Below, one piece after another: positions 8,328 through 22,555 of a stretch of DNA of 24,656 nt (within the stretch, counting starts at the first letter, position 1; the number at the start of each line of letters is the position of its first letter). This DNA is from Candidatus Dojkabacteria bacterium (GTDB taxonomy: Bacteria > Patescibacteriota > Dojkabacteria > CALFHW01). The position numbers and the translations under genes were made by a program. The notes beneath the pieces were generated by a model. It saw only the letters and a program-made list of their open reading frames with translations. It ran no database searches and was not told where the DNA came from. The stretch is from positions 1-24,656 of the forward strand of contig JBMCLZ010000001.1 in NCBI GenBank assembly GCA_048615025.1. Direction: 5' to 3'.

Positions 8328-9281
8328 ATATCTGTACGAACAGCTGAGGCTGTATCTACTGCAACCCATCTCATCCATACGGAACTAAATACTCTCGGGG
8401 AAAAATACAAACTACCAACAATAGATGATCTAGATGCTAGGATCCAATCTTACAAATCATACCTCCCAGAAATATCTGACCCAGCTAAGAAAGAATTGGT
8501 AGATAAAGCTCTGGCAATCGCGATAACAGTTCACAATGGTAAGGTAAGGCGTGTGAGCGGTGCTCCAGTATTTGAGGAGCATATTATGGCAGTGGCAAAT
8601 CTTTCGCACCAGATTGCACTTTCGAAATGTGAGGCTGGGGCAGAAATCGATCCAGTAGATGCTCTTGTTGCCGGGTTGCTACACGATTGTGTCGAGGACT
8701 ACGCTTGGCAGCTTGGTGATCATGATGCAAGGAAAGAAGCGATGCAATCGATGTTTAAGCTCATCCAAGAACTCTTTCCAGAAGAAATCTCACGATCTGT
8801 TTACTGGCTCACAGTAAATCTTTGTGATAACCAGCAGTTATATTACCCTCCCTGGCTAGATGGATACCAGAAAACAATATTGGAGACAGAAATGTGGAAG
8901 ATAAAATTGCCAATTGCCTCTGAGCTCAGCAAGGTTGTAAAGCTAGCAGATCTAGCACTTAACACTCATGATATGAAGGTTGCTCCAGATGGTTCCCAGG
9001 TCAACGGACCGCTTCAGCTAAAGATAGCTCAACGAATGCAGATTGTCAGGATTATTTGCAATGTACACTATCAGGTTGCTCAATATGTGATGGACAATCT
9101 TATGGGCATAAATGAAGAGAGTCTAATAATTCTGTCTCTCAGTGAGCAAAACACTGTCTTGCAACAGATCATGAGAATAAATTCACATAAAACAGATAGA
9201 GACCACGGGTCACCTGTGATCACACCGCCTGGACATTTCGCTGGGGTTGTTTCTCTTCAAACTCAAGTGCAAGGGAGTTGA
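8328..9281 (+). CDS. Stand-alone RelA/SpoT-type HD-domain hydrolase (small alarmone hydrolase/Mesh1-like)
   Basis: Motifs VHNGKVRRVSGAPVFEEHIMAVA (cf. H..Q.RKSGEPY..H), AGLLHDCVED, VYWLT, VVKLADLALN. The ORF track starts at TTG 8496, but the frame is open back to 8319; a start at ATA 8328 is proposed and is uncertain. Confidence 0.7.
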   Translation: MSVRTAEAVSTATHLIHTELNTLGEKYKLPTIDDLDARIQSYKSYLPEISDPAKKELVDKALAIAITVHNGKVRRVSGAPVFEEHIMAVANLSHQIALSKCEAGAEIDPVDALVAGLLHDCVEDYAWQLGDHDARKEAMQSMFKLIQELFPEEISRSVYWLTVNLCDNQQLYYPPWLDGYQKTILETEMWKIKLPIASELSKVVKLADLALNTHDMKVAPDGSQVNGPLQLKIAQRMQIVRIICNVHYQVAQYVMDNLMGINEESLIILSLSEQNTVLQQIMRINSHKTDRDHGSPVITPPGHFAGVVSLQTQVQGS

Positions 9282-9624
9282 TGCAGTATCTTTGCCCTGT
9301 AGGTTGGGGACCGTCGTTGAACACATGCCCAAGGTGCGAGTCGCAATTTGCGCACCGTACTTCAATTCGTTTCATGCTAAGGGAGTTGTCTTCTAGAAGC
9401 TTTATTTTCTTAGAATCGACTGCTTCATAAAAAGATGGCCAGCCAGAGCTAGATTCGAATTTTGTTTCTGAAGAAAACAGCTCATTCCCACAAGCTGCGC
9501 ACTTATACATGCCGCTTTGCTTGTTGTTGAGCAACTCTCCAGAAAAAGCGGGCTCTGTGCCCGCTTCCCTTAAAATCTTGTAACGCTCAGGAGATAGTTT
9601 CTCCTTCCATTCATTTTCCTCCAT
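9220..9624 (-). CDS. msrB: Peptide-methionine (R)-S-oxide reductase MsrB (zinc-binding type)
   Basis: GTEPAFSG, CAAC and CANC zinc pairs, KFESSSGWPSF, SHLGHVFNDGP, catalytic RYCINS. No signal peptide. Confidence 0.97.
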   Translation of the reverse strand: MEENEWKEKLSPERYKILREAGTEPAFSGELLNNKQSGMYKCAACGNELFSSETKFESSSGWPSFYEAVDSKKIKLLEDNSLSMKRIEVRCANCDSHLGHVFNDGPQPTGQRYCINSLALEFEEKQPQRNVQAV

Positions 9625-10254
9625 CTACTCTACAAACGTTCCAACAACTGGAATACCATCAAAGATATCGTCGGTATGAGGAGAATCTATGTTTGTAATA
9701 TCTTGCCCACCGTCTACTCCCTTGTGGTTACATCCTTCCCAAGCTTGCTGGTCGCTTACATCGTATACTGTTCCTCTATAAGCTACATAGCAGTTTTCGT
9801 CTGAGCTATATCTTTCCAGCTGAGCAAGAGTAAATTCACTGCTAGTTTCTGAGTTACTCGTTTCTTCTAACTTGTATGGGATGAGTCTTGCGAAATCATC
9901 CCCATGTCCTTCTGCGAAAGTTTCACTCATGTCGTCACCACAATCGAAGATATCCCCACCTGGGTGCTGGTCTCTAAGTGGCTGGACGTCGTACTTTTCG
10001 CCATTCACAGTAATAATACAAGTCTGGGCAAGCTCGCCAGTATCCAATTCACTCAACTGAGATGTTTCTGCAGCACTTGAATCTGACTGCGAATTAGCAG
10101 CACTCGAGCTGTTATCAGACTCTTCGTCGTCGCCAAGCAGCACAACGGCTGCTGCTACTGAGCTAATCAGTAAAATAAGAACAATCACCCCAATTCCAAC
10201 ATAAAATGATATTTTCGTAGATTTTGGTTCACTAGTATTTGATGCTGGATTCAT
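9625..10254 (-). CDS. Membrane-anchored protein with two tandem cytochrome b5-like heme/steroid-binding domains
   Basis: N-terminal TM helix after basic residues, then a Ser/Ala-rich linker. Domain 1: IITVNGEKYDV...HPGG...EGHG. Domain 2: FTLAQLERY...CYVAYRGTVYDVS...WEGCNH...GQDIT...SPH. Each has two candidate His ligands. Start at ATG 10254 preferred; TTG 10266 is the alternative. Confidence 0.85.
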   Translation of the reverse strand: MNPASNTSEPKSTKISFYVGIGVIVLILLISSVAAAVVLLGDDEESDNSSSAANSQSDSSAAETSQLSELDTGELAQTCIITVNGEKYDVQPLRDQHPGGDIFDCGDDMSETFAEGHGDDFARLIPYKLEETSNSETSSEFTLAQLERYSSDENCYVAYRGTVYDVSDQQAWEGCNHKGVDGGQDITNIDSPHTDDIFDGIPVVGTFVE

Positions 10255-10315
10255 TTTATTAATCAAAAAAATTATATTAAGCTTAAGTAGTTAAATATAT
10301 TATAGATTTGGATTC

Positions 10316-11650
10316 ATGAGAAGGAAGTTGTCGCTGTTTGCAATCTTTGCTTGTCTTGTTATTACCTTTAACCTATTCGTTATCGCAGCTCCCAATATCG
10401 ACTTCTACATAGAGGAGTACACACTTGCCATTGCCAAACTTACAGGTCTTTGGGGGTTCGTGTTGCTTGGGATCACGTTCTTTTTGTCTGGCAGGTGGGC
10501 AGTTGTCGACTATGCTTTCGAGGGGCAAGATCAGTCGTATAAGTGGCATCATAACCTTGGGCGTTTTGCACTAGCGGTGACGCTCCTGCACCCCATTTTC
10601 CTGATCTACCGGGCTATCCCAAACTCCGATAGAGTCTTAGAGCTTCTGCTTCCAGTTGGCTCTTTAGATGTTTCGTTTGGGATACTGGCACTCTACGGAT
10701 TCATTTTCCTCATAACCCTAACAGTTTTAGTCTCCCTCCCCTACCGTCTCTGGAAGGCAACGCATATTTTTATGAGCTTCCCACTGCTGCTTGCAGGTCT
10801 TCATATATTTTTTGTAGATGGGATTGTGCGTCAGGACGCGGTTCTTTTTGCCTGGATGGCTTTCTTTTTTGCCTTGGGGATTTTTTCTCAGATTTTTAGA
10901 AGGTTGATCTACCCATTCCTTTACTCTCGCACTTACAAAGTGAAAACTATCGAGCACATAGAAAAAGGCGTTATCTGGGATATTTGGCTAGAAGCAACTG
11001 GCAGGGTGCATGTATTCGCTCCAGGCCAGTATTTTTTTGCAAAGTTCTATAGCAAGGGTCTTAAGCAAGACGAGCATCCGTTTAGTGTTGCTAATTTCGA
11101 CGCTAGTGGGAAGGTTGTACGGCTTGGGATTAAAAACCTAGGTGATTTTACCTCTAAGCTTAGCTCATTAAGTATTGGTGATTATGTAGAATTGATGGGC
11201 CCACACGGTGGTTTTGGAGATGCTTATCTAGAAAACCTTTTACGAGTTGAGCAAGGTAATGCGTCTTCTGAGCAAAAACATATGGTTCTTATCGGTGGTG
11301 GGATTGGTGTTACTCCGATTCTTTCTCTCTTAGACCATGCGAAGCAGAATGCTGTGCAAGCCCCCATTACTGTGTATTACTCTACAGTTAAAGCAGAGGA
11401 AGCTGTCTATGAGAAAGAGATCAAAGAAGCAATTTCTGCTCTTCCAAATGCAAGTTACATCCCCTTCCCTGAAGAGACAAAAGGCTTCTTAAGCGCAGAG
11501 CAAATCTTAGAAGACACAAAGGCAGATCCAAAAGACATTCTCGCCTTCATCTGCGGCCCCCCTGGAATGATGAGCGCGCTAAGGTCCCAGCTACTAGCCA
11601 AAGGCACCCCCTCAGCTCAGATCATCAGCGAGGATTTTGGGTTTAAGTAG
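10316..11650 (+). CDS. Ferric reductase/NOX-family flavocytochrome (TM bis-heme domain, FAD-binding domain, NAD(P)H-binding domain)
   Basis: About 6 TM helices with His pairs spaced 14 (WHHNLG...LLHP) and 13 (THIF...GLHI), as in NOX/FRD hemes. FAD motif EHPFS, GDFTSKL, GPHGGF; NAD(P)H motifs GGGIGVTP and CGPPGMM; terminal EDF. Confidence 0.9.
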   Translation: MRRKLSLFAIFACLVITFNLFVIAAPNIDFYIEEYTLAIAKLTGLWGFVLLGITFFLSGRWAVVDYAFEGQDQSYKWHHNLGRFALAVTLLHPIFLIYRAIPNSDRVLELLLPVGSLDVSFGILALYGFIFLITLTVLVSLPYRLWKATHIFMSFPLLLAGLHIFFVDGIVRQDAVLFAWMAFFFALGIFSQIFRRLIYPFLYSRTYKVKTIEHIEKGVIWDIWLEATGRVHVFAPGQYFFAKFYSKGLKQDEHPFSVANFDASGKVVRLGIKNLGDFTSKLSSLSIGDYVELMGPHGGFGDAYLENLLRVEQGNASSEQKHMVLIGGGIGVTPILSLLDHAKQNAVQAPITVYYSTVKAEEAVYEKEIKEAISALPNASYIPFPEETKGFLSAEQILEDTKADPKDILAFICGPPGMMSALRSQLLAKGTPSAQIISEDFGFK

Positions 11651-12859
11651 GGTACTTATCTTTTCTTGTTTTAGGTCTAGCTGGCTATGATTTTCGGCAA
11701 CTATCGTGACTTGTGCTAGTTTAGGAAATCCAAGTTCTGGAGGACCAACTATATCGCCTTCTCTTGCAAAAGGCTTTATTTCTTCAATCCCTTCAAGGTT
11801 ATCTGTTGCTCTGGTAAATGCAGTAAACTTACCTAGCTCATCTGCGTAGATATAGAATACCCGGACAAACCTCTTAGGCATATTTTCTCTACTTTTGAGA
11901 TTACTACCACTAATGGTGTTAACAATCCCTGTGATGTAATCAAATCCATAAGCATATTTATATAGAGTTTGCCTGAATCCTCCCATTCGTGGGTTTATCT
12001 CTATTACTCCAATTTTCTCATGCTCTTTATCATATTTAATTTCTATGTGTAATACACACATTTTTAGCTGAAACTCCTGTATTAGTTTTTCCACACTTTC
12101 TCTAATGTGCGCGACTGTTTGTTTGTCTGAACTAACTGGAGTTTGTGAAAAGTCTATAGCTAAGGAGCTTGCAATGGTTTTCTGCTCTACTAGTGGGTAT
12201 AGTTTAATTTTCCCCTCCCAGTCGACTATGGCGTCGATTGAAAACTGTTTTCCTTGAATATAATCTTCTACTAGCCATTCCGAGCTAGTCAGATTCGCAT
12301 TCTGCTTTATCTCTCTAACTGTTTTTCTTAGAGTGTCTATACTATCAATTAGAAATACTCCCTTACTCCCACTTTGATTACTTGGTTTTAAAATGAATGG
12401 CAGATCAAACTTATGTGAGATTCTTTCTAGCTCAGCTAAATTACTAATTGCTTCACTTTTGGTAATAAAATCACTATTTATCTCAGACAAGTGACCTCTA
12501 AGAGAAACCTTGTCCTTAAAAGGGGTTAATTTTTGCAATACATTTTTTGCCGGCCTTAGTGAGTATTTTTCAGCTATCTCTATCGAAGTTCTAAGATATT
12601 TCTCTTCTCTAGGTATGATTAGGCACGAGTTGGCATTAATCTCCTCAAAGAATTTTTCCAGGTTTTCTTGCTTGATAGTCAGCTCGGCTAGAGAAATGGC
12701 TTCGTATATATTTGCGGGAAAGTCAATTCTATCGAGTTTTTTGCTAGAACTTTTGTTGCTTTTATCGACGATTATATTTACTTTTATTCCTCGCTTAGCA
12801 ATTTCTCTTGCTAACTCCAGCTGGAAGTTCCCAATAAATAGTACGTGTTCAATTTTCAT
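11612..12859 (-). CDS. ATP-grasp ligase, L-amino-acid ligase / ATP-grasp_4-like
   Basis: 415 aa. FKDKVSLR, FILKPSNQSGSKGV, WLVEDYIQG, LHIEIK...GVIEINPRMGG, plus a C-terminal domain like that of L-amino-acid ligases. Confidence 0.82.
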   Translation of the reverse strand: MKIEHVLFIGNFQLELAREIAKRGIKVNIIVDKSNKSSSKKLDRIDFPANIYEAISLAELTIKQENLEKFFEEINANSCLIIPREEKYLRTSIEIAEKYSLRPAKNVLQKLTPFKDKVSLRGHLSEINSDFITKSEAISNLAELERISHKFDLPFILKPSNQSGSKGVFLIDSIDTLRKTVREIKQNANLTSSEWLVEDYIQGKQFSIDAIVDWEGKIKLYPLVEQKTIASSLAIDFSQTPVSSDKQTVAHIRESVEKLIQEFQLKMCVLHIEIKYDKEHEKIGVIEINPRMGGFRQTLYKYAYGFDYITGIVNTISGSNLKSRENMPKRFVRVFYIYADELGKFTAFTRATDNLEGIEEIKPFAREGDIVGPPELGFPKLAQVTIVAENHSQLDLKQEKISTLLKPKILADDLS

Positions 12860-12861
12860 GC

Positions 12862-13644
12862 TCAGAAGAGTAATTTTGCCGGGTTAGTTTGTGTAAGCTT
12901 AGTATAAGCGTTAAACTGCGGGCTTCTGTTGTATTCAATCAGATACAAACTGCCAGAAGTTGTTTTAGCAATATCTAGCCCGATCATTTCGTAGTTAATC
13001 CCGCTCTCTTCAGCAAGTTTTGTAAGCACCATAGTAAATTGCTTGAGTTCTGAGGAAACTTCAGTTGCATCAGTAACTGCTAGTTTATTATATTCTGCTT
13101 TACTTCTTTTTATCCCAGCCAGAGGGAGTACGTTACCGGCAACTATCATAACTCTATATTCAGTCTGGATATCTAATTTGTCTTGAATGATGTACCCACT
13201 CTCCGAGTGCGGTAGCTTCTCAGAACTAAAGTATATGCCTTTAGATCTCGAACTAATTCTCTCTTTAATTAGTTCCGACCCATTAATCGGTTCCCCTTCT
13301 TCTTGGTCGTAAATAGTTGTCTTTGGCATGTAATCCCGAAAAACTTGATATTGCCTCCACTTGTCTTCAAAAAATATATCCTCGGTTTTCTCTAAGTTGT
13401 CTATCACCTTGATATTTTTGCTAGCACTCAATTTTTGGAATATCTTCTCTATCGTTGTCCTCACTTCTTCTAGCGGTCTCCCTGTGTTGAAAGGGTCTCT
13501 TAGATAGAGAACATCATCGTCATCTATCTCGTGTTCTTGCTCGCCGAAATAACTTAACTTGAACTCATGGTTTTCTCTGATTGCTTTCTCAAGCAGACCT
13601 ATAGATAGATCTTCTTCTGTTGTAATTACATGGATCTTACTCAT
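12862..13644 (-). CDS. RimK/LysX-like ATP-grasp ligase
   Basis: 260 aa. EDKWRQ, IKERISSRSKGI, YIIQDKL, EYRVMIV, MIGLDI...LYLIEYNRSPQF (cf. RimK G.D...LEVN.SPG). ATGA overlap with the upstream gene and a 2-nt gap to the downstream gene. Confidence 0.78.
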   Translation of the reverse strand: MSKIHVITTEEDLSIGLLEKAIRENHEFKLSYFGEQEHEIDDDDVLYLRDPFNTGRPLEEVRTTIEKIFQKLSASKNIKVIDNLEKTEDIFFEDKWRQYQVFRDYMPKTTIYDQEEGEPINGSELIKERISSRSKGIYFSSEKLPHSESGYIIQDKLDIQTEYRVMIVAGNVLPLAGIKRSKAEYNKLAVTDATEVSSELKQFTMVLTKLAEESGINYEMIGLDIAKTTSGSLYLIEYNRSPQFNAYTKLTQTNPAKLLF

Positions 13645-14501
13645 AATAAATCATATTCAATTAGTTTTAATTCATTAATACCAAACTTACCAGTCATCAG
13701 ATCCTCAATGCTATGTTTTTCTAGTAGTTTATTCACAATTGCAAAACCGATCTTGTATGCAGATCCCTTTGGGTATGCTCCAGGCAATCGCCCATCTATG
13801 AAGCCTCTTTTCACTCTCATTGTTGTAATGAATAATTCATTAGGGCTAGTGTGGGGGTATTGCCCCCCCAAAAGATGAAATGTTTCGAGGAAAGAGTGCT
13901 TTTTTGCAGTTATGACTGCTAAGTGCCTTGATCTATATCTATCCCAGACTTCTTTACTTAGCAGACCTTCCTTCCATTCTGAGTATACTGCTAGTCCCTC
14001 TTCCAAGAGAATATAGTCTGGTAGGATTGCATTTTTGATTAATGGATTGTTGGAGTAATTTGCCTTTACGCTTCTTAATACATGTGTCCCGATTTCGTGG
14101 ACAAGTAGCCTTCTAAATTGCAGCTCTGTTCTTTTTACTTCAATTCCTACTTGAATGGCCTTGTTGTCTTGCGATACAAAGATGTTGTAGGGCCTTTTAT
14201 CTGATATGTCTGCCTTCCACCCCTCAAATCTATCATCATTTCTCAAAGCTTGATTAAATCTATCCTTAAGTTGCTGGGCATTTAGCATTGGGGAGTTTAT
14301 GTGTTTCTCAGAGGGGAGTTCGCTTAGATCCGGAAAGTATTTCTCTAATTCTTCTACAACATCTTCTGAGTAATCCCATCTGTAGTTAGCATCCATGATC
14401 TCCTGTGTTAGTTGCCCCGTACCATAAGTTTGGGAAAGTTTATAGCGTGATTTTGTTGTATCCAGAAGATCTATGAAATAACTCTCTAGATCTTCTGGCA
14501 A
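13641..14501 (-). CDS. DUF1704 / MATCAP-type (tyrosine/phenylalanine carboxypeptidase domain) zinc metallopeptidase
   Basis: LLVHEIGTHVLR (HExxxH), LLEEGLAVYSE (EGLA third-ligand motif), TMRVKRG, GAYPKGSAYKIG, LMTGKF. TTG start; the true N-terminus is uncertain (see findings). Confidence 0.85.
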   Translation of the reverse strand: MPEDLESYFIDLLDTTKSRYKLSQTYGTGQLTQEIMDANYRWDYSEDVVEELEKYFPDLSELPSEKHINSPMLNAQQLKDRFNQALRNDDRFEGWKADISDKRPYNIFVSQDNKAIQVGIEVKRTELQFRRLLVHEIGTHVLRSVKANYSNNPLIKNAILPDYILLEEGLAVYSEWKEGLLSKEVWDRYRSRHLAVITAKKHSFLETFHLLGGQYPHTSPNELFITTMRVKRGFIDGRLPGAYPKGSAYKIGFAIVNKLLEKHSIEDLMTGKFGINELKLIEYDLL

Positions 14502-19387: not shown

Positions 19388-20845
19388 ATGAGTAAGAAAA
19401 ATTGGTTTGTAGTAAGCTTGTTAGCTCTAATAATTATTTTAGCAGGTATAGTCCGTGCTTGGGGAATAGATATGAGCTCGATGCAGATGGACGAGTATTT
19501 TCATATCGCAACAGCACAATCGATTCTAGAAGGTCATGGTGGAGAGGTATTTCGTGAAGGTCATCCTAGAATATATATGAGAGCGTTTTTACTTACGCTA
19601 ATTATCACGCCATTCCAGGCAGTCGCCCCTGAGTTTGCAGCAATTCCTTCTATTTTGTTTAGCCTTATTTCTATTGTTTTGATTTACCTAATCGGTAGCA
19701 AGTTCTCGAAATCTGTTGGGCTCATTGCAGCTTATGCGTTTGCTTTTTCTACACTAGCTGTAGCGATGGGCAGCTATATTCGTGGATACTCGCTATTTGT
19801 AATGATGCAACTTGCACTAGTTTACGCATTAATGCAAATCGATTGGAGCCTTAAGGGAAAATATTCTTACCCAGATAAGTGGTTTCGCGTAGCCACAATT
19901 CTCGCCTTACCTAGCCTATACTTTCTCGCAGATCCCAGAAGCACTTTTACAAGTACAATTGTAATTCTGCTTGCAGTCCCAGTATTTTTCGTTTGGCATA
20001 ACCTAAGGTGTCTGAAATATGTCTTGCCAATATCTGCTGCTATTCTAGCGATCGGATTCGCAATTGTAGGTACTGTTGGGCGCCTTGGCGGACAAGAGCA
20101 TGTTAATCTTTATCCAATTTATAACTCAGAATTCTTGGGCTATTTCTTTTCCGGCCTTCACACAATAGATATCCCCTGGATCTCGTTGCTGTTCACCCCA
20201 TTTTTTCTTTTGGGGATAGCTACACTCTTAAGAAGCAAAGATCAATCTCTAAAGCTAATTAGTGTTGTTACATTTACATTTTTAGTTTTCTACGGATTTT
20301 ACTTTAACCGATATTTCGAAGAGCGTTATATTTATTATCTGATTCCATTTGCCCTAATTACTTTCGCTGTTGGAGTGGAAAGTCTTGCAAAGAAAGTTGC
20401 TACTAATCGTTTAGCTACCGCTCTTATAATATTTCCAATCTTGATCCTAATGCTATTGCCTTTTTTTCCTAACCCAAGAGAGAACGCCACAGAAATCAAA
20501 CAAGAGAAGATAGAATTTCAAGAACCGTTTTTTACAATTCAGAATTATAATTTAAAGGTAGATGAGCAGACAGCATTTATTACATCTCACCAGTTCGTGC
20601 TAGCCTACTATTTTGACCTCTTCAAGAGTGACCGGCTATATTCTTTCGACCAAAGGGTGCCCGATTTCAGCGCGGACAACAGAAAAGTGCTGCAAGAGTA
20701 CGAACAGGGGTACGTCGTTGTTGAGCGAGCATGGAGGACTGATGCGGTTACAAAGGCTAATCCTGAGTTTAGTGGGGTGCAGTTGTGCGATATAGCCAGC
20801 GACTCGACCTATATTATTAAAGGTTGGGGAAGAAGTTGCGACTAA
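19388..20845 (+). CDS. GT-C fold membrane glycosyltransferase (ArnT/PMT-like, GT39/GT83 type)
   Basis: First TM followed by an external loop with MQMDEYFH (DE motif), YIRGYSL, about 11-13 TMs, EERYIYYLIP and a soluble C-terminal domain. ATG 19388 preferred over 19373. Confidence 0.85.
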   Translation: MSKKNWFVVSLLALIIILAGIVRAWGIDMSSMQMDEYFHIATAQSILEGHGGEVFREGHPRIYMRAFLLTLIITPFQAVAPEFAAIPSILFSLISIVLIYLIGSKFSKSVGLIAAYAFAFSTLAVAMGSYIRGYSLFVMMQLALVYALMQIDWSLKGKYSYPDKWFRVATILALPSLYFLADPRSTFTSTIVILLAVPVFFVWHNLRCLKYVLPISAAILAIGFAIVGTVGRLGGQEHVNLYPIYNSEFLGYFFSGLHTIDIPWISLLFTPFFLLGIATLLRSKDQSLKLISVVTFTFLVFYGFYFNRYFEERYIYYLIPFALITFAVGVESLAKKVATNRLATALIIFPILILMLLPFFPNPRENATEIKQEKIEFQEPFFTIQNYNLKVDEQTAFITSHQFVLAYYFDLFKSDRLYSFDQRVPDFSADNRKVLQEYEQGYVVVERAWRTDAVTKANPEFSGVQLCDIASDSTYIIKGWGRSCD

Positions 20846-20859
20846 TGCTAGAATTATCT

Positions 20860-21312
20860 ATGGAAAAATTCAGAAAGAAAAAAATAGTTAATTTTCTCGC
20901 TGTAGTTTTGGTTATTGCGTTGGTGGCTGCGGTTGCGGGTTTTATTGTTGGCCAGCAGGCAGAAGGCGATACATCGGAAAAAGATTCGGTCCAAGAGCAG
21001 CAGCAAGATACTTTTACTTTGGTCGTAGAAGCTGAAGGGCAAAAAGATAGATACGAGATAAAAACTAGAGAGGGAGAGACTTTGCTGCTTGCAATGAGCA
21101 GGTACGCAGAGGAAAACGATCAGTTTAGTTACAAGACAGAAACGTTCAGTTTTGGTGAATTTATTACAGTTATTAATGAGATAGATGGTAGCGAAGAAAG
21201 CGGTAACTATTGGGCTATCTCTCTAGATTCTGAACCTGCGCAGGTAGGTGTTTCAGAGCTTGTTCCAGAAACCGGGCAGGAAATTAGCTTTGTGCTCACT
21301 TCATTAGAGTAG
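20860..21312 (+). CDS. Membrane-anchored DUF4430 (transcobalamin C-terminal-like) protein
   Basis: Basic N-terminus and TM helix, then GETLLLAM...FGEFITVINEI...YWAISLDSEPAQVGVSELVPETGQEISF, the DUF4430 pattern. ATG 20860 follows TG-c-TAGAAT plus 5 nt; ATG 20845 (TAATG overlap) is the alternative. Confidence 0.78.
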   Translation: MEKFRKKKIVNFLAVVLVIALVAAVAGFIVGQQAEGDTSEKDSVQEQQQDTFTLVVEAEGQKDRYEIKTREGETLLLAMSRYAEENDQFSYKTETFSFGEFITVINEIDGSEESGNYWAISLDSEPAQVGVSELVPETGQEISFVLTSLE

Positions 21313-21314
21313 TT

Positions 21315-21881
21315 ATGCAAAAATCTTACACAATCGATCTGGCAATATTTATTGGTCTATTGTTGTTAGTTTTGCTAACCCGCACAAGCTTACACATTGC
21401 TCCAAATGTAGAGTTTGTAACTGCAGCTTCAGTTTTTGCCGCATGGGTGATGCGTAATAAGAAAATCGCACTGGCTTTTCCAGTGGCTGCGATGTTTGTT
21501 TCCGACCTAGTTATCGGTAACAGCTACATTTTTCTTTTTACCTGGTCTGGTTTTTTATTTCCTGCCGTTCTTGCTTTGGCAAATTTCTCTAAGCAGGAAG
21601 AAACTGTTGGTAAGAAATACTTTAAGTTCCTAGGATCTGGTTTTGTTGGGGTTCTTCTATTCTACTTTTGGACCAACTTCGGAGTTGTATTGCTTGGAAA
21701 TATGTATCCAAATAGCTTGGCAGGACTTATGCAAAGCTATGTAAACGCTCTTCCATTTTTAAGGAATCAGGTGTTGGGAAACATTTTTATTCTGCACATT
21801 TTTTTTGGTGCGTACCTAATTTTAGAAAATGTTAGTGAAAGATGGACGATCTTAAGCAAACTACACTCGCAGAGTACTTAA
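21315..21881 (+). CDS. DUF6580-like ECF S-component-type transporter (putative vitamin/corrinoid uptake)
   Basis: About 6 TMs; LTR...[37 protein letters not shown]...[26 protein letters not shown]. Confidence 0.75.
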
Positions 21882-22555
21882 GAGAAATTATATATGGAGG
21901 TAACGACGGAATCGTTACTACTTTCGCCGTAGTAGCTGGGTTTAGTGGGGCTGCTTTAACAGGGAACGAGGTTGTGGAGCTTTCTTTCTTAACAGTACTG
22001 TTGTTCGGGCTCGCAAACTTATTTGCAGATGCACTTTCGATGGGACTAGGGAACCTACTTTCGATCCGCGCTGAGCGAGATGTCTATGCTTCTGCGAAAG
22101 AAGATCAGCTTAGGTTTATCGAGGAGCAAAAAGAGCGGGAGATCGAAAGGACAGTTGCTGCTTTGGAGGAAAGTGGGTTTAGTAACGAAGACTCGAAAAA
22201 AGTTGCAGAGATCTATAAGCACAACGACAACTACTGGGCGGAGTGGATTATGAACCATGCTTATGGGATTCCAAACTCTGAAGGGGTGAATCCTTACTTT
22301 ACAGGGCTTGCTACTTTTTTGTCATTCTTAATCTTTGGAGCGATTCCACTTATTCCATTTGTGCTAGTTGGAGAAGACGCTGAGCTTGCGTTTATTTCCT
22401 CTAGTATTTCCACTTTGCTGGGCCTAGTGCTTTTAGGTGTTCTGCGCTGGAGAATAATCGGTGGAAAATTCTTGCGTAATGTTTTGGAAATAGTTCTTAT
22501 AGGCGGGACTGCAGCTGTTGTCGCATTTCTGGTAGGATTCTTATTCCGCGGGTAA
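21842..22555 (+). CDS. VIT1/CCC1 family Fe2+/Mn2+ transporter
   Basis: [41 protein letters not shown], acidic cytoplasmic metal-binding segment, [17 protein letters not shown]. Confidence 0.93.

Follow-up and report, generated by a model that had tools for sequence, protein, structure and literature searches.

A divergent gene pair of a Dojkabacteria genome, encoding a NOX-like flavocytochrome and an anchored di-cytochrome b5 protein, as a candidate route for electrons from NAD(P)H to the cell exterior

In bacteria of the candidate phyla radiation (CPR), genes for pFre and for cytochrome b5 are known to lie close to each other. For 185 of the 1427 pFre-bearing CPR genomes, a b5 gene was reported at a distance of 10 kb or less from pFre (Tamarit et al. 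2021; bioRxiv 10.1101/2021.11.17.468889, section 3.5). This co-localization was not seen outside CPR, and an unknown membrane complex was proposed (10.1101/2021.11.17.468889). 'MsrQ-like' systems, which combine PF01794 with PF00175, were proposed to hand electrons taken from NAD(P)H over to a flavoprotein outside the cytosol (Meheust et al. eLife 2021; PMC8238504), in some cases for iron assimilation together with VIT1 (PMC8238504). For SpNOX, a bacterial homologue of the NADPH oxidases (NOX), the outer haem was found to be strikingly exposed under short loops, and doubt was expressed that O2 is its natural electron acceptor (Dubach et al.; PMC11564096). Here we describe a locus at positions 9220-11650 of a 24,656-nucleotide stretch from a Candidatus Dojkabacteria bacterium (assembly GCA_048615025.1, contig JBMCLZ010000001.1, positions 1 to 24,656 of the forward strand; hereafter the window, meaning this whole stretch), in which the gene for a NOX-like flavocytochrome is arranged head-to-head with the gene for a membrane-anchored protein carrying two cytochrome b5 domains. 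The pairing of NOX and b5 has already been reported in the preprint of Tamarit et al. (2021), and the present locus is a minimal example of it: the PF01794 and PF00173 genes, for which a distance of up to 10 kb was allowed, are here only 61 bp apart in a CPR genome.

Three tightly packed open reading frames (ORFs) were confirmed at 9220-11650. The NOX-like flavocytochrome b of SpNOX type (444 aa) is encoded at 10316-11650 on the plus strand, as judged from Pfam, motifs, PDB match and the AlphaFold2 (AF2) model. The minus strand carries the gene for the anchored di-b5 protein (9625-10254; 209 aa), of which the likely start is the ATG at 10254, with an alternative in-frame TTG start at 10266, followed by msrB (9220-9624; 134 aa) for methionine-R-sulfoxide reductase. 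In the first-pass annotation, made from the sequence without database searches, the NOX-like and b5 genes were described as divergent across about 61 bp and msrB as following the b5 gene immediately. Both statements are correct: the two ATGs are separated by an AT-rich spacer of 61 bp (10255-10315), presumed to contain both promoters, and the stop codon of the b5 gene abuts the start codon of msrB (TAG|ATG). A promoter and terminator scan of 9100-11800 gave nothing better than shuffled sequence. An operator in the 61-bp spacer is not claimed, the short palindromes found there being not common to the relative on contig L001 (see below). Family E-values and conserved gene order place the assignment of this locus far beyond chance.

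The NOX-like protein matched Ferric_reduct (PF01794, 4e-12), NAD_binding_1 (PF00175, 2.5e-11), NAD_binding_6 (PF08030) and, weakly, FAD_binding_6 of Pfam. Both hydropathy and the AF2 model (mean pLDDT 93.7, pTM 0.89) indicated six transmembrane (TM) helices ahead of a dehydrogenase domain on the cytoplasmic side; aa 1-203 (10316-10924, plus strand) make up the TM haem domain, and aa 204-444 (10925-11647, plus strand) bind FAD and NAD(P)H as the dehydrogenase domain. All the motifs on which the first-pass annotation had based a NOX/ferric-reductase architecture were recovered, including His78/His92 with a spacing of 14 and His150/His163 with a spacing of 13, HPFS(V) at 254, GGGIGVTP at 327 (GIGVTP at 329-334), CGP at 413 and the terminal ExF within the C-terminal sequence E439-D-F441-G-F-K; a further His is located at 79. 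In an alignment of 54 homologues, His78, His92 and His163 were invariant and His150 was conserved in at least 90%. The closest solved sequence match was SpNOX (8qt6, 2e-17), and comparison of the full-length model with the same structure by Foldseek gave an E-value of 4.6e-23, with TMq 0.79 and TMt 0.88. The protein passed all the sequence filters defining bacterial NOX (Hajjar et al. 2017; PMC5676040), and it shares with this group the six TM helices with a C-terminal FAD/NAD(P)H domain, the His pairs in TM3 and TM5, and the fold of solved NOX. As the haem ligands of SpNOX are H69/H129 for the inner and H83/H142 for the outer haem (PMC11564096), the ligands of the inner haem are predicted by analogy to be His78/His150, and those of the outer haem His92/His163.

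In eukaryotic NOX, the O2-reaction centre beside the outer haem consists of a non-ligand His and an Arg (PMC11564096). Within residues 1-210 of the NOX-like protein, no His was found besides those at 78, 79, 92, 150 and 163, and the residue at position +4 from His92 is Leu. As there is no non-ligand His in the outer half, the His/Arg centre for O2 is absent, as in SpNOX, and the protein thus differs in its O2-reaction centre from a strict O2-reducing NADPH oxidase. According to the secondary structure of the AF2 model, the outer loops are short, with about 10, 16 and 8 residues.

The divergently encoded partner matched Cyt-b5 of Pfam (2.9e-11) in two stretches, and these were found to be of different types, in agreement with the first-pass description of a single-TM protein with two different b5 domains. 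The first domain, D1 (aa 75-131; 9862-10032, minus strand), is a shortened classical (clade-2-like) b5 domain, modelled by AF2 at pLDDT of about 82-94. A profile constructed from 15 orthologous D1 domains matched the haem domains of flavocytochrome b2 (8e-6) and housefly b5 (2e-5), with His97 (in HPGG) and His117 in register with their axial His; D1 thus possesses both the fold and the two axial His of classical b5 (PF00173, clade 2). The two His and two Cys of D1 were invariant in the 15-sequence alignment and at least 90% conserved among 16 two-domain orthologues. The two Cys, Cys79 and Cys105, align with both Cys of b558 (1CXY), a periplasmic cytochrome of Ectothiorhodospira vacuolata; these probably form a disulfide in b558, although a literature search gave no confirmation of it.

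The second domain, D2 (aa 139-209; 9628-9840, minus strand), is of the MAPR-related, His-ligated cytb5M type. By phmmer it matched the archaeal structures 6VZ6 (8e-15) and 6NZX (1e-9) at 40-42% identity; by Foldseek it was superimposed onto the cytb5M structures with TMt of 0.80-0.82 and rmsd of 1.5-1.8 A; and His177/His193 align with the published axial ligands H42/H61. In sequence, fold and ligand positions, D2 therefore agrees with cytb5M. Both His, together with Cys155 and Cys175, were invariant among the 16 two-domain orthologues. Assignment of D2 as the Tyr-ligated cytb5MY was rejected after alignment with 14 cytb5MY-type neighbours, because D2 carries W..C.H plus PH and not Y..GG.YH.

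The di-b5 protein contains a single hydrophobic segment (aa 21-39), with net charges of +1 in its N-terminal and -6 in its C-terminal flank, and AF2 predicted a helix at residues 14-40. From hydropathy, flank charges and AF2 altogether, the N-terminal signal-anchor helix was placed at about aa 17-40 (10135-10206, minus strand). Between this anchor and D1 lies an acidic, Ser-rich tether (aa 41-74; 10033-10134, minus strand) of about 35 residues, which is rich in Ser, Asp and Glu and disordered in the AF2 model (pLDDT below 50 for residues 45-75). An exhaustive homologue search among representatives with the b5 protein recovered 1127 relatives (E-value 0.001 or better), and many of these carry 2 to 8 b5 repeats. 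Among the 148 listed representatives with an initial Met, an N-terminal hydrophobic segment was present in 133, and 124 of the 133 obey the positive-inside rule. Both Cys were kept in 83 of the 84 D1-type domains. The positive-inside signal and the conserved Cys pairs together argue for an N-in/C-out topology with both b5 domains facing outward, as the first-pass annotation had proposed. Since the cytoplasm is the only possible location of the NAD(P)H domain, the outer haem of the NOX-like protein should be located on the same side of the membrane as the b5 domains.

The pairing was then found in other genomes, which was one of the checks suggested by the first-pass annotation. Only one protein closely related to the b5 protein was found, at 48% identity, and it is encoded on the 79-kb metagenome contig L001 within the same divergent pair, with a 49%-identical NOX-like gene, and there a NUDIX gene occupies the position of msrB. 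A one-genome-per-species scan with a D1 peptide pattern, derived from a six-row alignment and chosen without regard to NOX, yielded 53 CPR loci. The loci with informative names all belong to CPR, including WS6/Dojkabacteria, Saccharibacteria, Shapiro-, Nomura-, Woese-, Roizman-, Davies- and Collierbacteria, WWE3, Wirthbacteria and others. A NOX-like gene directly adjoins the b5 gene in 44 of the 53, and four of the remaining nine loci end at a contig edge. The NOX/b5 pairing is thus strongly conserved in CPR. Clustering of neighbours over 55 loci (the 53 plus the window and L001) showed b5 in 51, NOX in 46, cytb5MY in 31, histidine kinase in 21, response regulator in 20 and TspO in 5, and identified a canonical CPR operon with the order b5, cytb5MY, NOX, b5, response regulator, histidine kinase, all on one strand. 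In many CPR operons, the D1-type and D2-type domains are encoded by separate genes flanking NOX, and these are fused in the present protein and in L006-L009. Such fusion provides evidence of the Rosetta-stone type that D1 and D2 may act together.

Some of these loci show features of their own. In Ca. Wirthbacteria (L016 4970-9299), the module is duplicated in tandem as b5, NOX, b5, cytb5MY, NOX, b5, followed by a two-component system. A gene for TspO/MBR, a tetrapyrrole-binding family, immediately precedes the b5/NOX operon at five loci, including L033 (4307-4711) and L053 (Pfam 2e-32), and this adjacency hints at a link to tetrapyrrole handling. CPR-type operons were also found in records titled 'uncultured Gammaproteobacteria' or 'Pseudomonadales' (L017, L018, L020, L023, L024, L035, L042, L043, L047, L053, L055, L056 and L057), one of the contigs being 840 kb in length; their NOX genes nest among the named CPR lineages in the tree, and the names on these records are probably wrong.

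Within the class to which the present genome belongs, PF01794 was detected in 18 of 41 genomes, usually as a single copy. We examined the neighbourhood of 14 NOX-like genes, an unbiased sample of the same-class genomes. A b5 gene adjoins in three (this genome, G028 and G031), a gene for ApbE in four, and neither of them in seven. The four with ApbE, G003 of the same family (L067 4734-7668) and G012, G013 and G014 (L079, L080 and L081), have no b5 gene there, and three of them, G003, G012 and G014, additionally encode a small protein with an N-terminal anchor next to the NOX-like gene. The 175-aa anchored protein of G003 gave no significant match in Pfam or PDB, and its homologue in G012 gave a weak FMN_bind match (E 0.01) below the cut-off; this protein, encoded beside ApbE, is therefore regarded as a probable, not proven, substrate of flavinylation. 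In a quick maximum-likelihood (ML) tree of NOX-like genes, in which the b5 label is enriched by the sampling of loci, three ApbE-linked genes formed a clade of their own (SH-aLRT 100), and the G003 gene was placed inside a mostly b5-linked group, the deep support being weak. Because ApbE and the anchored protein take the place of b5 in these same-class relatives, the comparison suggests a single kind of exporter whose outer carrier can be exchanged, being either b5 or flavin-based. The G003 gene groups in this tree with a 36%-identical NOX-like gene at L004 6001-7350, which is located on an apparently archaeal contig (CGI-121, FtsZ, RIO1) and has no b5 neighbour.

The supply of haem was considered from the gene content of the genome, which consists of 788 kb in 118 contigs and is 80% complete. 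The NOX-like and di-b5 genes were the sole matches of PF01794 and PF00173. Neither ALAD, HemC (porphobilinogen deaminase) nor ferrochelatase was found in this genome, and neither were cytochrome bd, haem-copper oxidase and TspO; ALAD was detected in none of the 41 class genomes, 33 of which are of high quality. Since no haem-synthesis gene was found in the genome and no ALAD in the class, the haem must be scavenged. The first-pass annotation had anticipated this for the case that the organism belongs to CPR, which it does. A b-type carrier would be well suited to scavenged haem, with no maturation machinery required.

Taking these observations together, we propose that the pair forms a two-protein route, based on haem b only, by which electrons are moved from cytoplasmic NAD(P)H to the outside of the cell, and we estimate the probability of this reading at roughly 60%. 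The SpNOX-type flavocytochrome would oxidize NAD(P)H at its cytoplasmic dehydrogenase domain, and single electrons would then be transferred via FAD to the inner haem (His78/His150) and further to the outer haem (His92/His163), which would be covered by short loops only. The divergent partner, anchored by one helix, would hold its two bis-His b5 domains outside on the tether of about 35 residues, where they could accept electrons from the exposed outer haem and pass them to an extracellular acceptor. Both proteins would be loaded with scavenged haem. The redox potentials of b5 are well above those of NOX haems. Because of this difference, transfer from NOX to b5 would be downhill, favouring metal or protein acceptors over the one-electron reduction of O2. 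Among the candidate acceptors, ferric or other metal chelates, reduced for assimilation, are tentatively placed first, even though they fall short of an even chance; O2 and a surface-located or host-borne acceptor appear less likely. The idea of an electron wire in the first-pass annotation is thus supported in its conserved pairing, its topology and its bis-His sites, and from these we infer the electron transfer from NOX to b5, the direction of flow and its purpose. Under a broader and rather unlikely extension of this proposal, the scavenged-haem conduit with its exchangeable carriers would be the main sink of NAD(P)H in CPR bacteria, which are devoid of respiratory chains and of haem synthesis, by way of a respiration-like extracellular transfer possibly directed toward the host surface; if true, this would identify the class of physiological acceptor for the bacterial NOX homologues.

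Several points weigh against the two-protein route. The b5 partner is not obligatory for the NOX-like family, being adjacent in only 3 of the 14 genes of the class, and even the same-family genomes G002 and G003 have no adjoining b5 gene. Haem binding, both by the b5 domains and by the NOX-like protein, we infer from homology only. No route of haem uptake, which a haem auxotroph needs, was identified, and for the iron-assimilation version an importer of Fe2+ (FTR1 or a convincing FeoB) was not found in this 80%-complete genome; the FeoB_N matches there were not counted as FeoB, because they were partial (profile positions 2-48, and 32-156 below the cut-off) and resembled generic GTPases. No later functional work on the CPR pFre/cytb5 clusters was found in the literature. 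A complex prediction with NOX-like aa 1-210, b5 aa 70-209 and four haems, run without controls, gave a score of 0.00 against a mark of 0.32, which counts neither for nor against binding.

The same two proteins could instead serve the acquisition of haem, with the tethered b5 domains acting as surface receptors or relays of haem and the NOX-like protein reducing Fe(III)-haem for its release or import. The arrays of b5 repeats resemble the tandem haem-receptor domains of Gram-positive bacteria. Relatives with up to eight b5 repeats on one anchor fit this explanation, as do the missing haem-synthesis genes in both genome and class and the TspO genes adjoining five loci. The canonical CPR operon furthermore adds the Tyr-type cytb5MY, which could release haem upon reduction (Tamarit et al.; bioRxiv 10.1101/2021.11.17.468889). 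At the present locus, however, no Tyr-type cytb5MY is encoded, no haem transporter is linked, and TspO is missing from the genome as far as it was recovered. Both D1 and D2 would be six-coordinate with bis-His ligation, typical of electron carriers and not of haem-transfer proteins, and the replacement of b5 by ApbE and a flavoprotein in relatives fits electron transfer but not haem capture. Haem acquisition is for these reasons considered unlikely.

Alternatively, the NOX-like protein might work by itself as an oxidase that reduces O2, either for production of superoxide or H2O2 or for regeneration of NAD(P)+ in a fermenter, with the b5 protein being separate or modulating. The agreement with all sequence criteria of bacterial NOX is in line with such activity, SpNOX is known to consume O2 in vitro, and half of the NOX-like genes examined in the class (7 of 14) have no recognized adjoining partner. 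This explanation leaves the widespread b5 linkage (44 of 53 loci) without a reason, and the His/Arg centre for O2 is absent, as in SpNOX, for which the authors themselves doubt O2. In addition, no Fe/Mn superoxide dismutase was found in the incomplete genome. We regard a self-sufficient oxidase as quite improbable.

The first-pass annotation had included MsrB as a third member of the module, repairing the Met oxidation caused by the NOX/b5 wire. MsrB was clearly identified as a thiol enzyme of SelR type (SelR 1e-51, TIGR00357 3e-55), of the Zn-type with two CxxC motifs and the catalytic Cys114. The TAG|ATG abutment indicates that b5 and msrB are co-transcribed here, and MsrQ-MsrP offers a precedent in which a ferric-reductase-domain protein is tied to methionine sulfoxide repair. 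Hydropathy analysis, however, revealed neither a hydrophobic segment nor a hydrophobic N-terminus, and in the lack of an export signal MsrB is cytoplasmic, away from the outward haems. Among the 53 loci, msrB was detected within 8 kb of the pair in only one, it is absent from the locus of the nearest relative, and msrA is located on another contig. This part of the annotation was therefore not sustained: msrB is a passenger, co-transcribed at this locus and with at most a loose connection to the pair via oxidative stress, and the three-part module is very doubtful. That the NOX-like and b5 genes are chance neighbours with unrelated functions, as the divergent arrangement outside a single operon and the very compact genome might allow, is highly improbable because the adjacency recurs in many CPR lineages while the NOX-like gene, for the most part single-copy, is limited to 18 of the 41 class genomes.

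The remainder of the window contains genes in the vicinity of the pair. On one side, an ORF at 8496-9281 with a weak HD-domain match (1.3e-5) converges on msrB with a 62-bp overlap of the 3' ends, and one of these two ORFs may have a misplaced end or start. On the other side, the minus-strand genes at 11612-14501 encode a MATCAP-like (DUF1704) carboxypeptidase (Pfam 2.6e-18) and then two ATP-grasp ligases (Pfam 7e-23, with weak matches to RimK/YheCD), and the 3' end of the last gene of this set overlaps that of the NOX-like gene by 39 bp. Further away, co-directional genes at 20824-22555 encode a DUF4430 protein, a DUF6580 membrane protein resembling an S-component, and an iron transporter of the VIT1 family (Pfam 3e-8, 3e-33 and 1.6e-52, respectively). 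The VIT1 gene, about 10 kb from the NOX-like gene, was not counted as part of the module, since it was found near the pair in none of the other loci.

Comparison with the described systems places the locus nearest to the pFre/cytb5 clusters, in which likewise a PF01794 flavocytochrome gene adjoins one or more genes for anchored b5 domains in a CPR genome. It differs from the canonical one-strand operon in being minimal and divergent and in the fusion of the D1-type with the cytb5M-type domain; the additional components of that operon were not detected, there being no further PF00173 match in the genome, and hence no cytb5MY, and no kinase or regulator among the ORFs of the window. The likeness to the MsrQ-like systems lies in the PF01794 plus PF00175 exporter, and G003, G012, G013 and G014 carry the flavinylation form, whereas the carrier here is a haem b5 and not an ApbE-flavinylated protein; neither ApbE (by tblastn) nor FMN_bind (PF04205) was found in this 80%-complete genome. 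With E. coli MsrPQ (with Fre), the locus shares a di-haem membrane protein of the ferric-reductase domain that feeds an extracytoplasmic protein, as well as the theme of methionine sulfoxide. MsrQ, however, has no dehydrogenase domain fused to it and works with MsrP, a molybdoenzyme of the periplasm, whereas at this locus the Msr enzyme is MsrB, which is cytoplasmic and has no conserved linkage to the pair; an exported Msr partner was not recognized, as MsrB has no hydrophobic N-terminus, and no search for MsrP was made.

At the level of the b5 domains, D2 is 40-42% identical to cytb5M (6NZX and 6VZ6) with both axial His kept, and D1 has in common with b558 (1CXY) the b5 fold, both His and both Cys positions. 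These three structures represent single soluble domains of unknown function, whereas in the present protein two types are fused, anchored and tethered. The flavocytochrome itself is closest to SpNOX (8QT6 and 8QQ7), with which it shares six TM helices, His spacings of 14 and 13, the FAD/NAD(P)H motifs, the C-terminal aromatic residue, the short outer loops and the fold, at an identity of 22-23%. If the proposed route is true, it shows a way in which very small symbionts that are auxotrophic for haem get rid of reducing equivalents or carry out extracellular metal reduction, and its minimal two-gene form, with a fused di-b5 protein and no regulator, should be convenient for reconstitution. SpNOX is without a known protein partner and bacterial NOX homologues in general have structures but no known physiological acceptor, whereas the NOX-like protein of this locus has a linked, outward-facing b5 protein as a concrete candidate acceptor.

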